A DNA stretch of 42,917 bases from a virus (Duplodnaviria > Heunggongvirae > Uroviricota > Caudoviricetes). A program made the translations under genes and the position numbers. The stretch's first letter is position 1, and each line of letters starts with the position of its first letter. The stretch lies in IMG/VR virus record IMGVR_UViG_2718218102_000002; one strand, written 5' to 3'. Below the pieces are notes generated by a model, which was given only the letters and a program-made list of their open reading frames with translations, did not search any database and was not told the DNA's origin. Shown here one piece after another: positions 30,773 through 42,917 of the stretch.

Positions 30773-31059
30773 GCCTTAATAACCCCCTCTTTCAGCCACA
30801 TAACCTGTGTTCTCGCCATACCTTCCAGCGCGCATTCTTTTGCATATGCAGCATCGACAAAATGTGTGCGGCGGTCGATTTCGTCGTGGCAGGCAGAACA
30901 TGCAATGGTGGCAATCAGGTCTGGCGGTTTGGTACCGGTGCCGCACAATCCAGTCAGCCGGATATGTGCCAGTACAGACGTTTCAGGGTTGCCATTACAT
31001 ACGCCAGGGATTCTTACCTGGCATTCCCGACCACGCGCTGCTTTTCTCAAATCAGCCAT
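30769..31059 (-). CDS. YbcO-like protein (DUF1364), putative nuclease
   Basis: Start set at [14 protein letters not shown] (AGGAGG Shine-Dalgarno 5 nt upstream), giving 96 aa with a Cys cluster. ATGA overlap with the rusA start. Confidence 0.65.
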
Positions 31060-38405: not shown

Positions 38406-38702
38406 ATGAACGCTTATTACATTCAGGATCGTCTTGAGGCTCAGAGCTGGGTGCGTCACTACCAGCAGATCGCCCGTGAAGAGAAAGAGGCAGAACTGGC
38501 AGACGACATGGAAAAAGGCCTGCCCCAGCACCTGTTTGAATCGCTATGCATCGATCATTTGCAACGCCACGGGGCCAGCAAAAAAGCCATTACCCGTGCG
38601 TTTGATGACGATGTTGAGTTTCAGGAGCGCATGGCAGAACACATCCGGTACATGGTTGAAACCATTGCTCACCATCAGGTTGATATTGATTCAGAGGTAT
38701 AA
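38406..38702 (+). CDS. gam: Gam (RecBCD inhibitor), short form
   Basis: 98 aa, starting [15 protein letters not shown], matching lambda Gam as recalled. Confidence 0.9.
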
Positions 38703-38707
38703 AACGG

Positions 38708-39493
38708 ATGAGTACAGCACTCGCAACGCTGGCAGGGAAGCTGGCTGAACGTGTCGGCATGGATTCTGTCGACCCACAGGAACTGATCACCACTCTTCGC
38801 CAGACAGCATTTAAAGGTGATGCCAGCGATGCGCAGTTCATCGCATTGTTGATCGTCGCCAACCAGTACGGCCTTAATCCGTGGACGAAAGAAATTTACG
38901 CCTTCCCTGATAAGCAGAACGGCATCGTTCCGGTGGTGGGCGTTGATGGCTGGTCCCGCATCATCAATGAAAACCAGCAGTTTGATGGCATGGACTTTGA
39001 GCAGGACAATGAATCCTGTACATGCCGGATTTACCGCAAGGACCGTAATCATCCGATCTGCGTTACCGAATGGATGGATGAATGCCGCCGCGAACCATTC
39101 AAAACTCGCGAAGGCAGAGAAATCACGGGGCCGTGGCAGTCGCATCCCAAACGGATGTTACGGCATAAAGCCATGATTCAGTGTGCCCGTCTGGCCTTCG
39201 GATTTGCTGGTATCTATGACAAGGATGAAGCCGAGCGCATTGTCGAAAATACTGCATACACTGCAGAACGTCAGCCAGAACGCGACATCACTCCGGTTAA
39301 CGATGAAACCATGCAGGAGATTAACACTCTGCTGATCGCCCTGGATAAAACATGGGATGACGACTTATTGCCGCTCTGTTCCCAGATATTTCGCCGCGAC
39401 ATTCGCGCATCGTCAGAACTGACACAGGCCGAAGCAGTGAAAGCTCTTGGATTCCTGAAACAGAAAGCCACTGAGCAGAAGGTGGCAGCATGA
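38708..39493 (+). CDS. bet: Bet (Red-beta single-strand annealing protein)
   Basis: 261 aa, starting [21 protein letters not shown], essentially lambda Bet as recalled. Confidence 0.95.
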
Positions 39494-40170
39494 CACCGGA
39501 CATTATCCTGCAGCGTACCGGGATCGACGTGAGAGCTGTCGAACAGGGGGATGATGCATGGCACAAATTACGGCTCGGCGTCATCACCGCTTCAGAAGTT
39601 CACAACGTGATAGCAAAGCCCCGCTCAGGAAAGAAGTGGCCTGACATGAAAATGTCCTACTTCCACACCCTGCTGGCTGAGGTTTGCACCGGTGTGGCTC
39701 CGGAAGTTAATGCTAAGGCGCTGGCCTGGGGAAAACAGTACGAGAACGACGCCAGAACCCTGTTTGAATTCACTTCCGGCGTGAATGTTACTGAATCCCC
39801 GATCATCTATCGCGACGAAAGTATGCGCACCGCCTGCTCTCCCGATGGTTTATGCAGTGACGGCAACGGCCTTGAACTGAAATGCCCGTTTACCTCCCGG
39901 GATTTCATGAAGTTCCGGCTCGGTGGTTTCGAGGCCATAAAATCGGCTTACATGGCCCAGGTGCAGTACAGCATGTGGGTGACGCGAAAAGATGCCTGGT
40001 ACTTTGCCAACTATGACCCGCGTATGAAGCGTGAAGGCCTGCATTATGTCGTGATTGAGCGGAATGAAAAGTACATGGCGAATTTTGACGAGATGGTGCC
40101 GGAGTTCATCGAAAAAATGGACGTGGCACTGGCTGAAATTGGTTTTGTATTTGGGGAGCAATGGCGATGA
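39490..40170 (+). CDS. exo: Exo (Red-alpha 5'-3' exonuclease)
   Basis: 226 aa, starting [30 protein letters not shown], essentially lambda Exo as recalled; ATGA overlap with bet. Confidence 0.95.
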
Positions 40171-40349
40171 AGCATCCTCACGATAATATCCGGGTAGGCG
40201 CGATCACTTTCGTCTACTCCGTTACAAAGCGAGGCTGGGTATTTCCCGGCCTTTCTGTTATCCAAAATCCACTGAAAGCCCAGCGGCTGGCTGAGGAGAT
40301 AAATAATAAACGAGGGGCTGTATGCACAAAGCATCTCCCGTTGAGTTAA
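40167..40349 (+). CDS. Hypothetical small protein (lambda orf60a position)
   Basis: 60-aa ORF from MKHPHD, with ATGA overlap to the exo stop. Confidence 0.45.
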
Positions 40350-40513
40350 GAACGAGTATCGAGATGGCACATAGCCTCGCTCAAATTGGAGTCAGGTTTG
40401 TGCCAATACCAGTAGAAACAGACGAAGAATTTCATACGTTAGCCACATCCCTTTCACAAAAGCTGGAAATGATGGTGGCGAAAGCAGAAGCAGATGAGAG
40501 AGACCAGGTATGA
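40322..40513 (+). CDS. Hypothetical small protein
   Basis: 63-aa ORF with a GAGGGG Shine-Dalgarno. Confidence 0.45.
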   Translation: MHKASPVELRTSIEMAHSLAQIGVRFVPIPVETDEEFHTLATSLSQKLEMMVAKAEADERDQV

Positions 40514-40593
40514 CAACCACTGAATGCATTTTTCTGGCAGCGGGCTTCATATTCTGTGTGCTTATGCTTGCCGACATGGGACTTGTTCAATGA
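40510..40593 (+). CDS. Hypothetical 27-aa hydrophobic peptide (below the track length cutoff)
   Basis: MTTTECIFLAAGFIFCVLMLADMGLVQ; ATGA overlaps with the genes on both sides. Confidence 0.3.
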   Translation: MTTTECIFLAAGFIFCVLMLADMGLVQ

Positions 40594-40805
40594 CACCTCA
40601 GCAAGAAAACGCCCTTCGCAGTATTGCCCGTCAGGCTAATTATGAAATCAAAAAAGCCAGACAGCAGTTTCCGGATAAAAACGTCGATGACATTTGCCGT
40701 AGCGTACTGAAGAAGCACCGCGAAACGGTAACGCTGATGGGATTCACACCGACTCATTTAAGCCTGGCGATCGGCATGTTAAACGGCGTCTTTAAGGAAC
40801 GGTGA
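40590..40805 (+). CDS. Hypothetical small protein
   Basis: 71 aa from MTPQQENALR (internal start of track ORF 40524-40805), chosen for its ATGA coupling to the upstream peptide. Confidence 0.4.
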   Translation: MTPQQENALRSIARQANYEIKKARQQFPDKNVDDICRSVLKKHRETVTLMGFTPTHLSLAIGMLNGVFKER

Positions 40806-40903
40806 ACATGAAAAACAAAATCATCATGGAGCTACAGGCTCCTTTTTTATTATTCGCATTCACCCTCAAGCGTATTAACCAACAATTCAGGGATTAATGA
40901 AAG

Positions 40904-41122
40904 ATGGCAGACATCATTGATTCAGCATCAGAAATTGAAGAATTACAGCGCAACACAGCAATAAAAATGCGCCGCCTGAACCACCAGGCTATATCTGCCA
41001 CTCATTGTTGTGAGTGTGGCGATCCGATAGATGAACGAAGACGCCTGGCCGTTCAGGGTTGTCGGACTTGTGCAAGTTGCCAGGAGGAGATCGAACTTAA
41101 GAACAAACAATGGGGACTGTGA
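40904..41122 (+). CDS. C4-type zinc-finger protein (TraR/DksA-like)
   Basis: 72 aa with CCECGDPIDERRR…CRTCASC. Confidence 0.6.
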   Translation: MADIIDSASEIEELQRNTAIKMRRLNHQAISATHCCECGDPIDERRRLAVQGCRTCASCQEEIELKNKQWGL

Positions 41123-41169
41123 TGGCCTCAAAGCAGCAAATTTCAACATCGTCCAACTGAGGTGTAAAA

Positions 41170-41409
41170 ATGTTCAGAATCATTTTTCCTAACACCTGGT
41201 ACGTCGACCACCACGGCACTCCCTGCAAAATCCTGCGTTCTACCCACAACAAAGTTCACTACATCCGAAAAGGCAGAACATGTATCGCCAGCATGTTCCG
41301 CTTTAATCATGACTTTGAACCTGTGAATAAAGCTGATGCAGATCGGATAGCAGAAGAGATCGAAACGGCAGAACACATTAAGAAGTTACGTGCCATACGC
41401 AGGAAATAG
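41170..41409 (+). CDS. Hypothetical protein
   Basis: 79-aa ORF with a GAGGTG Shine-Dalgarno. Confidence 0.45.
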   Translation: MFRIIFPNTWYVDHHGTPCKILRSTHNKVHYIRKGRTCIASMFRFNHDFEPVNKADADRIAEEIETAEHIKKLRAIRRK

Positions 41410-41548
41410 AAAAATTGATAAATTCAATACTGCATTTCTCAGCATTAAATTTATCTCTATGACCAGTCAAGAGATGTACCTGCCATGAGCTTAATATCAT
41501 GTCAGATATATCGGTCACAAACTCCCTCAGCAGCTAAGAGGAGGACAA

Positions 41549-41785
41549 ATGTCTCGACTAATCACTTTACAGGACTGGGCTAAAGAAGAATTTGGGGACT
41601 TAGCACCAAGTGAGCGAGTTCTGAAAAAATACGCGCAAGGGAAAATGATGGCCCCACCCGCTATAAAAGTTGGTCGCTACTGGATGATTGACCGAAATTC
41701 CCGTTTTGTAGGAACGCTTGCAGAACCGCAACTCCCAATAAACGCAAACCCAAAACTCCAACGGATAATCGCTGATGGCTGCTAG
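41549..41785 (+). CDS. xis: Excisionase (Xis-like)
   Basis: 78 aa, starting MSRLITLQDW with …PPAIKVGRYW, resembling lambda Xis as recalled. AGGAGG Shine-Dalgarno; 3' end overlaps int. Confidence 0.7.
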   Translation: MSRLITLQDWAKEEFGDLAPSERVLKKYAQGKMMAPPAIKVGRYWMIDRNSRFVGTLAEPQLPINANPKLQRIIADGC

Positions 41786-42917
41786 ACCCCGATCTCACAA
41801 AATCTCTATACCCAATTTATATTGCAAATTAGATAAGCGAACCGGAAAGGTATATTGGCAATACAAACATCCACTATCCGGTCGTTTTCATAGCTTAGGA
41901 ACTGATGAGAATGAAGCAAAACAAGTTGCTACTGAAGCAAATACCATTATTGCTGAACAACGTACCCGACAAATATTAAGCGTCAATGAGCGTCTGGAAA
42001 GAATGAAAGGCAGGCGCTCAGACATTACGGTGACAGAATGGCTTGATAAATATATTTCTATCCAGGAGGACAGGCTGCAACATAATGAACTAAGACCCAA
42101 CTCCTATCGGCAAAAAGGCAAACCCATTCGTCTTTTCCGTGAGCATTGTGGAATACAACACCTCAAGGATATTACCGCACTTGATATTGCCGAAATAATT
42201 GATGCTGTAAAGGCTGAAGGTCATAACAGGATGGCGCAAGTCGTGAGAATGGTGTTAATCGACGTCTTCAAAGAAGCACAACACGCAGGACATGTTCCGC
42301 CAGGATTTAACCCAGCGCAGGCAACAAAACAACCGCGAAATCGAGTAAACCGCCAAAGATTATCACTGCCCGAATGGCAGGCAATATTTGACAGCGTAAG
42401 CAGACGGCAGCCCTATTTAAAATGCGGGATGCTACTTGCTCTTGTCACTGGACAACGTTTAGGCGATATCTGCAATTTGAAATTCTCTGATATCTGGGAC
42501 GACATGTTGCACATTACTCAGAAAAAAACCGGTTCAAAACTTGCTATTCCGCTTAACCTGAAATGCGATGCTCTGAATATTACCCTTCGTGAAGTTATAT
42601 CTCAGTGCAGGGATGCTGTTGTTAGTAAATATCTGGTCCATTACCGTCACACAACCTCTCAAGCAAACAGAGGAGACCAGGTTTCTGCGAATACTCTGAC
42701 AACGGCTTTTAAAAAGGCCAGGGAAAAATGTGGCATAAAATGGGAGCAAGGAACTGCGCCCACATTTCATGAGCAGCGATCTCTGTCAGAACGGTTATAT
42801 CGGGAACAGGGTCTGGATACGCAAAAGTTGTTAGGCCATAAATCCAGAAAAATGACCGACCGATACAATGATGATCGTGGTAAAGACTGGATTATCGTAG
42901 ATATCAAAACAGCATAG
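41775..42917 (+). CDS. int: Tyrosine integrase (lambda Int family)
   Basis: 380 aa with the C-terminal catalytic region (…HEQRSLSERLY…LLGHKS…). Stop codon is the last three bases of the window. Confidence 0.9.
   Translation: MAARPRSHKISIPNLYCKLDKRTGKVYWQYKHPLSGRFHSLGTDENEAKQVATEANTIIAEQRTRQILSVNERLERMKGRRSDITVTEWLDKYISIQEDRLQHNELRPNSYRQKGKPIRLFREHCGIQHLKDITALDIAEIIDAVKAEGHNRMAQVVRMVLIDVFKEAQHAGHVPPGFNPAQATKQPRNRVNRQRLSLPEWQAIFDSVSRRQPYLKCGMLLALVTGQRLGDICNLKFSDIWDDMLHITQKKTGSKLAIPLNLKCDALNITLREVISQCRDAVVSKYLVHYRHTTSQANRGDQVSANTLTTAFKKAREKCGIKWEQGTAPTFHEQRSLSERLYREQGLDTQKLLGHKSRKMTDRYNDDRGKDWIIVDIKTA

Follow-up and report, generated by a model that had tools for sequence, protein, structure and literature searches.

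Does the short interval between orf63 and orf61 of the lambdoid phages hold a gene that annotation has missed? The interval lies in the exo-xis block, which is under active study for the lysis-lysogeny decision of Shiga-toxin (Stx) phages, and lambda itself is among the most thoroughly annotated genomes. The exo-xis region has reportedly been worked on by Sergueev et al. in 2002, and also by the Wegrzyn and Donaldson laboratories. We analysed a stretch of 42,917 nucleotides (nt) from a virus of the Caudoviricetes (IMG/VR record IMGVR_UViG_2718218102_000002), referred to in its full length as the window, and all positions are counted from its first letter. An earlier, sequence-only reading had described four short open reading frames (ORFs) linked by start/stop overlaps downstream of exo, one of them a hydrophobic frame of 27 amino acids (aa). 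Three of the four are already known, as lambda orf60a, orf63 and orf61. The 27-aa ORF, here called pep27 (MTTTECIFLAAGFIFCVLMLADMGLVQ), is the new part. Is pep27 a translated gene? Or is it an accident of reading within the leader, or the coding sequence, of orf61?

Over 801 nt around the chain the window is 97.5–99.5% identical to 181 phage records, which include lambda, 21, 434, 933W and many Stx phages. The chain lies on the + strand between exo and xis/int and carries the Pfam families DUF1317 and DUF1382 and a TraR-like family, in the same locus and gene order as in lambda and the Stx phages. By this similarity we place the region in the pL early-left operon, as the conserved 5' portion of the lambdoid exo-xis block. 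The published gene list of the block comprises orf60a, orf63, orf61, orf73, ea22, ea8.5 and orf55 (PMC3824215, PMC8614690), and two more peptides, of 7 and 31 aa, are ascribed to ribosome profiling (PMC8614690). Unlike the window, these seven ORFs and two peptides include no 27-aa ORF.

The coordinates of pep27 (40510–40593), read directly and from the ORF list, are exactly those first given for it. Its ATG at 40510 overlaps the orf63 stop codon (TGA, 40511–40513), and its own stop codon (TGA, 40591–40593) overlaps the ATG at 40590 of a 71-aa ORF, each time as ATGA. The exo stop codon (TGA, 40168–40170) is overlapped in the same way by the orf60a ATG at 40167. The four ORFs had been described as linked by start/stop overlaps, with ATGA at these three sites; all three are present, and the remaining link, orf60a/orf63, is a 28-nt out-of-frame overlap (40322–40349) and not an ATGA. 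Likewise, the chain does not end at the limits first set for it (40167–40805), since bet and exo share an ATGA at 39490 and the 29/31-aa ORF and orf73 follow downstream. The real gene order is best explained as exo, orf60a, orf63, pep27, orf61 (71 aa), the 29/31-aa ORF and orf73.

The claim that pep27 had been missed by annotation was borne out in the phage and RefSeq records inspected: it is annotated in none of lambda (NC_001416), phages 21, 434, 4A7, 3W and 933W, and four RefSeq E. coli genomes. A gap of 76 nt separates the DUF1382 gene from a 71-aa "hypothetical protein / ZapA" in RefSeq, and 933W annotates a 93-aa ORF instead, with a start equivalent to 40524. The exact pep27 sequence is present in the protein collection as a "hypothetical protein" (UniRef A0A0A2SGE8), called on 981 contigs. 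Pfam and PHROGs hold no pep27 family, and in NCBIfam there is only a sub-threshold chance match to MtrF (13.8 bits, cut-off 25). The peptide string was not found in searchable papers, nor is it in the Sakai ribosome-profiling (Ribo-seq) supplements, and a tblastn search with pep27 gave no matches beyond the E. coli lambdoid set.

How well is the frame conserved? We gathered 430 loci from phage records, IMG/VR, metagenomes and E. coli genomes, of which 332 span the pep27 ORF without gaps. The start, the 27-codon length and the stop are kept in 325 of the 332, and the peptide is identical in 280 (84%); the seven disrupted loci comprise two losses of the start, four changes of Q27 to a stop and one loss of the stop. 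None of the genuine loci has an indel in 40510–40593, and frame-breaking indels are present at the orf60a/orf63 overlap, within orf63 and in orf61. The sequence-only reading had named loss of the frame in homologous regions as its refutation; the frame is kept, with a synonymous bias described below. A 146-nt element around pep27 is present in 3143 of 5426 complete E. coli genomes (~58%), and of 176 phage records that match, 175 have the peptide with an identity of at least 92.6%. A divergent allele, seen at an identity of at least 99% in 115 genome records, has five synonymous and two non-synonymous changes.

Several apparently more divergent proteins were considered as an independent test and rejected as artefacts or wrecks: P0100 (51%), P0057 (79%) and P0067 (73%; word-index search). 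The loci behind such matches are a base-dropping assembly (L026), a truncated remnant (L027), an insertion sequence (IS) insertion (L028) and an IS66 insertion (L110). L026 (GCA_002230785.1, NLPJ01000020.1) misses one base per ~60 nt of the locus, apparently through mishandled FASTA lines, and yields spurious "divergent" proteins such as P0100. A contig scan of genomes returned mostly lambda contamination of unrelated assemblies.

An open frame alone is weak evidence here, as the block is 95–99% identical among nearly all its carriers. The 77 nt between orf63 and orf61 could then be an untranslated leader of orf61, in which a 27-codon frame with ATGA ends is coincidental and has been kept by recent common ancestry. 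The pattern of variation bears on this directly. It was scored over 166 distinct haplotypes, against a neutral expectation that uses the observed transition bias (kappa 4.6) and sets the synonymous fraction in the pep27 frame at 0.27. Variants in at least one haplotype comprise 13 synonymous and 15 non-synonymous changes (fraction 0.46, p = 0.021). For those in at least two haplotypes the counts are 9 and 9 (0.50, p = 0.031), in at least three 8 and 5 (0.62, p = 0.009), and in at least five 6 and 2 (0.75, p = 0.006). A synonymous fraction that rises with variant frequency is a signature of purifying selection. The same rise is seen in orf61 (0.45 to 0.76), where the bias is strong (p ≤ 0.003), and orf63, which matches a solved structure, gives a weaker synonymous signal than pep27. 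The commonest variants, counted in the first 339 loci analysed, are 40521 T>G (106 loci), 40581 A>G (94) and 40590 A>G (40). All three are synonymous in pep27, including the last, which turns the ATG at 40590 into GTG.

Other features of the interval also speak against a leader. In a simulation with local composition, an ATG on the upstream stop, an open frame and a stop on the downstream ATG occur jointly in 0.64% of random spacers. The hydrophobicity of the peptide is in the top 1% of the window's small ORFs, a mosaic joint falls exactly at the pep27 ATG behind a strong Shine-Dalgarno (SD) sequence, and from bet to orf73 the operon has no other gap of this size. On the leader's side, apart from the close identity of the carriers, are the absence of the ORF from distant relatives, its absence from the extra lambda peptides of the ribosome-profiling review (PMC8614690) and statistical support for pep27 that is moderate. 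We think an untranslated leader unlikely. A structured RNA was rejected as an explanation of the region: it has no Rfam match and folds less well than all 200 shuffles (z = +2.48).

Could another reading frame cause the synonymous pattern? Frame B, the frame of orf61 extended upstream to the ATG at 40524, has 6 synonymous and 16 non-synonymous variants (p = 0.69) and none synonymous among the four common ones, so it shows no synonymous enrichment; the two commonest variants are non-synonymous there. A 61-aa ORF on the minus strand (40392–40577) shares wobble positions with pep27 and might impose the codon-position pattern from the other side. It is open in both the window and lambda and has some synonymous excess where it overlaps pep27. 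Within that shared part its signal is below that of pep27, and the larger part, which overlaps orf63, has no excess (9 synonymous, 21 non-synonymous, p = 0.48). It also has no promoter-like site upstream on the minus strand and is opposed to the pL operon, and we regard it as extremely unlikely to be the cause. Thus frame B and both antisense ORFs fail to explain the pattern.

Phage mosaicism offers a further view of the gene boundaries. Mosaic joints in lambdoid phages are usually at such boundaries. One variant has a Dam methylase gene (L343, L107, L108, PhiR30_1) and is homologous to the window precisely from the pep27 ATG onwards; this ATG shares an ATGA with the methylase stop codon, and a GGAGG lies 4 nt 5' of it (SD –10.3 kcal/mol). 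A joint at this point suggests that pep27 and orf61 behave as a two-gene module.

What could link the two genes of this module? The SD of orf61 is near background (–3.9 kcal/mol, background –2.6 ± 2.3), and in many alleles its start at 40590 is GTG. The SD of orf60a is –7.7 kcal/mol. Where pep27 is absent (L109, Klebsiella phages, L348), orf61 either has its own GAGG SD or directly overlaps the upstream gene. Termination-reinitiation at AUGA overlaps is known from bacterial and phage operons, for example trpB-trpA. The pep27 locus resembles these in its four-base AUGA overlaps, found here also at bet-exo and exo-orf60a, and in the weak downstream SD. It differs in that a whole micro-ORF, with its own signature of amino-acid constraint, is interposed. 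Given the weak SD of orf61, we propose that relay through pep27 sets orf61 expression.

Such a relay might be all there is. In that case translation of an 84-nt bridge ORF carries ribosomes from orf63 to the SD-poor orf61, and the peptide is functionless and degraded. The ATGA overlaps on both sides, the weak orf61 SD, the signals that orf61 has where pep27 is absent, and a lineage-specific and dispensable peptide all fit this account. A relay would not need a conserved amino-acid sequence, yet the common variants are 6 synonymous to 2 non-synonymous and 84% of loci have the identical peptide. The non-synonymous variants mostly exchange one hydrophobic residue for another, and coupling does not require extreme hydrophobicity. 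In our view the amino-acid constraint argues that the peptide itself matters, not just the act of translation, and a relay alone is possible but rather unlikely.

The remaining reading is that of the literature, in which Orf61 is 93 aa long and starts at ATG 40524 (933W L0070, Phi24B vb_24B_7c), with pep27 a spurious alternative frame. All loci keep frame B open from 40524 on, and the 93-aa form is used by PHROG 303 and many database entries. What do the relatives of Orf61 say? True distant relatives of the 71-aa Orf61, with 21–47% identity in the alignment, came out of a full HMMER scan over 1.84 billion representatives. Seventeen of the 18 aligned homologues are 69–78 aa long (one is 89 aa), and they start within three residues of the Met at 40590. 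A mosaic variant of E. coli (the L109 type), which has 344 member sequences, has a 250-aa unrelated gene in place of orf63 and pep27, and its orf61 begins directly after that gene at the same Met, with its own GAGG. In Klebsiella phages, as in a metagenomic virus, a methylase gene lies upstream and the orf61-like gene overlaps it directly; in the Klebsiella phage a TraR homologue then follows. A search for distant orf61 with P0115 gave no matches in viral contigs.

The interval itself agrees with these homologues. There is no SD before ATG 40524, and in the window a frame-B stop (TGA, 40521–40523) stands immediately 5' of it. The AlphaFold2 (AF2) model of the 93-aa form has a predicted local distance difference test score (pLDDT) below 50 for residues 1–13 and a helical core, with confident helices only from residue 25. 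The N-terminal 22 residues were considered as a conserved part of Orf61 and rejected, because the homologues are short, frame B is unconstrained and the AF2 confidence is low. From the lengths and starts of the homologues, the mosaic variant, the Klebsiella and metagenomic loci and the AF2 model, we conclude that Orf61 has 71 aa and that frame B of 40524–40589 is not part of it, in contrast to the 61 aa (lambda) and 93 aa (Stx phages) of the literature. The 93-aa reading is very unlikely.

Why is lambda annotated with an orf61 of 61 aa? In an alignment of three, the run of A at 40651–40656 has six A's in the window and in phage 21, and seven in lambda. The extra A (NC_001416, ~30865) truncates the real 71-aa orf61. 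It recurs where lambda DNA has contaminated assemblies labelled Shewanella, Bradyrhizobium, Pseudomonas, Paenibacillus and others, so it is real in laboratory lambda. The annotated 61-aa ORF begins 20 nt within orf63, passes through the pep27 region in frame B, continues through the first 22 codons of the 71-aa ORF and ends in frameshifted sequence. The annotated lambda orf61 is thus a chimera created by the +1 A frameshift. Its passage through frame B depends on position 40521 (T/G), the one nucleotide of pep27 at which lambda and the window differ; the change is synonymous in pep27 and turns a stop into Gly in frame B.

The name ZapA, given to the 71-aa ORF by the Prokaryotic Genome Annotation Pipeline (PGAP), was rejected; the match to PF05164 scores 14.2 bits against a gathering threshold of 23.8 (E = 0.055) and covers just 33 residues. 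A Foldseek comparison of the model of the 93-aa form with the PDB found nothing at E < 1 and confirmed neither "ZapA" nor "homeodomain". The C-terminal half of Orf61 (residues ~40–65, GFTPTHLSLAIGMLNG) has weak ankyrin-repeat/DARPin matches in the PDB (best E = 5e-4) and also matches long proteins with many repeats among the representatives. Orf61 might fold like an ankyrin repeat and not like ZapA or a homeodomain.

What kind of peptide would pep27 be? The strong hydrophobicity first noticed in the sequence holds up, with a rank of 3 among the 323 ORFs of 20–40 aa in all six frames of the window by Kyte-Doolittle. The 19-residue maximum is 2.33 and the grand average of hydropathy (GRAVY) 1.62, which puts a stretch of this length above the transmembrane threshold. 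Small single-helix inner-membrane proteins of E. coli, such as AcrZ, KdpF and MgtS, have been found by comparative genomics or ribosome profiling. Like them, pep27 has fewer than 50 aa and one hydrophobic helix, was missed by annotation and is recognisable by conservation and start-site features. Unlike them, it is phage-encoded, lies inside a chain of overlapping genes, lacks basic flanks, shows no family similarity and is so far without a partner. Type I toxin peptides (TisB, 29 aa; DinQ, 27 aa; ShoB, 26 aa; Ibs, 19 aa; Hok) have a similar size and the same extreme hydrophobicity, and by analogy pep27 may perturb membranes if overexpressed. It was rejected as a type I toxin because it is embedded in the overlapping operon chain, has no Rfam match, has no antisense promoter-like site nearby and shows no homology to them.

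Taken jointly, these observations are best explained by pep27 being a real, translated small gene, confined to the lambdoid phages of E. coli, that serves as a relay to orf61 and encodes a membrane peptide, and we give this explanation somewhat better than an even chance. Ribosomes that finish orf63, or the Dam methylase gene in the mosaic variant, would stop at the UGA of the AUGA and re-initiate on pep27; those that finish pep27 would do likewise at the following AUGA (or GUGA), with re-initiation on orf61. The product would be a 27-residue peptide with one hydrophobic helix (~C6 to V26), which most likely inserts in the inner membrane early in lytic growth and may act on a membrane component of the host or the phage.

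A number of points weigh against this explanation. The peptide has no Lys or Arg; it contains E5 and D22, and D22 lies inside the hydrophobic stretch, which is atypical for a stably oriented transmembrane helix. The pep27 SD is moderate in the common orf63 context (–5.3 kcal/mol) and weak in the divergent allele (–3.0 kcal/mol). The selection test is small (28 variants), with p = 0.006–0.03 after the transition/transversion correction, and for the rarest variants the pep27 frame (frame A) and frame B do not differ significantly. In addition, the ribosome-profiling review lists just the 7- and 31-aa extra lambda peptides here and none of 27 aa (PMC8614690). Two loci have ATA in place of the pep27 ATG (40512 G>A), a change that leaves orf63 with a stop codon, TAA for TGA. 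In Escherichia sp. E1V33 (L007, 1435–1716) the pep27 ATG and GGAGG are kept after a 355-aa gene, and a 14-nt deletion joins the pep27 start to frame B, so that the ATG on the upstream stop reads through a natural 93-aa fusion in frame with orf61, in line with the literature reading, and pep27 is destroyed. This deletion shows that pep27 is dispensable, as it is in several lineages. Finally, pep27 is restricted to the E. coli lambdoid phages, while the Klebsiella phages, the metagenomic virus and one E. coli mosaic type (L109) do without it. As the family is young and narrow, the comparisons draw all their power from polymorphism within the species, where the counts are small.

The features of the window's right end (38406–42917), where all the genes from gam to int lie on the + strand, are collected below.

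Features around pep27 in the window (positions in nt)
Feature	Position	Strand	Basis or remark
gam	38406–38702	+	
bet	38708–39493	+	ATGA shared with exo at 39490
exo (lambda exonuclease)	39490–40170	+	226 aa; nearly identical to lambda exo; "exonuclease" in related records
orf60a (DUF1317, 60 aa)	40167–40349	+	Pfam PF07026, E = 2e-39; same position as lambda orf60a
orf63 (DUF1382, 63 aa)	40322–40513	+	Pfam PF07131, E = 8e-31; PDB 8DSB match, E = 7e-33
pep27 (candidate gene, 27-aa hydrophobic ORF)	40510–40593	+	Read directly and in ORF list
Frame-B stretch (residues 1–22 of the literature / 933W L0070 "93-aa Orf61")	40524–40589	+	Judged non-coding in frame B
orf61 proper (71-aa helical protein)	40590–40805	+	PHROG 303; weak own SD
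29-aa ORF (ATG 40808) or 31-aa ORF (GTG 40802, GTGA with orf61 stop)	40802–40897	+	ORF list
orf73 homologue (TraR/DksA-type zinc finger)	40904–41122	+	Pfam PF01258, E = 1e-8
xis	41549–41785	+	
int	41775–42917	+	

We take PDB 8DSB to be the published nuclear magnetic resonance structure of lambda Orf63, although the depositors' molecule name is "Xis (Excision72)". The G-run at 40315–40318 is the orf63 SD and lies inside the 3' end of orf60a. About nine loci have one, two or three additional G's; most of these insertions (+1, +2) frameshift the orf60a C-terminus, all alter the orf63 SD and its spacing, and the run may be a site of slippage-prone variation. The 29/31-aa ORF is labelled hypothetical in some phage records and its selection signal is weak; a lambda 31-aa peptide at its position has been seen by ribosome profiling, according to the review (PMC8614690). 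Inside this ORF is a terminator-like hairpin (40828–40842, + strand; GGAGCTACAGGCTCC then TTTTTTATTA, with a tail to 40852), which may be an intrinsic pL-operon terminator that is read through under N antitermination. Between the 29-aa ORF and orf73, and overlapping the stop of the one and the start of the other, is a 7-codon ORF (40897–40920, + strand; ATG AAA GAT GGC AGA CAT CAT TGA, MKDGRHH). As a guess, this might be the 7-aa "orf2311" ascribed to lambda ribosome profiling (PMC8614690). The function of lambda Orf73 has been described (PMC9239242). Near the left end of the window is another very hydrophobic ORF, of 33 aa (1269–1370, + strand; MKIQSKLIVLLNIIIAFILFELLDQKFGLSTLF), with a Kyte-Doolittle maximum of 2.38.

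What would a real pep27 mean for the lambdoid phages? The gene list of the exo-xis block would be incomplete, and "Orf61" would have been modelled, expressed and deleted with a wrong N-terminus (93 or 61 aa instead of 71). Insoluble constructs presumably had this non-native N-terminus, which may explain the reported insolubility of Orf61. The published orf61 deletions replaced the annotated orf61 sequence (PMC6213356). The lambda span (30839–31024) contains all of pep27 (lambda 30928–31008) and the Phi24B span contains its codons 6–27; these deletions are thus double mutants, and if pep27 is real every one of them also removes a conserved, predicted membrane peptide. Because the lambda orf61 span holds the whole of pep27 and the Stx "93-aa orf61" deletions remove most of its codons, pep27 might even be a functional early-lytic membrane effector and the cause of at least part of the published "orf61" deletion phenotypes, namely altered lysogenisation, prophage induction, host survival and Phi24B adsorption. 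We consider this doubtful. Were it true, pep27 would be a phage gene of recent birth, perhaps arisen de novo, present in more than half of sequenced E. coli and acting on a host membrane target.

As a small gene that had not been studied before, pep27 is credible, and it usefully corrects a classic annotation. With its element in ~58% of complete genomes, it would, if real, be among the commonest unannotated coding sequences of E. coli, and it would offer a tractable case of a young, lineage-specific micro-gene that has settled between two older genes with translational coupling kept.

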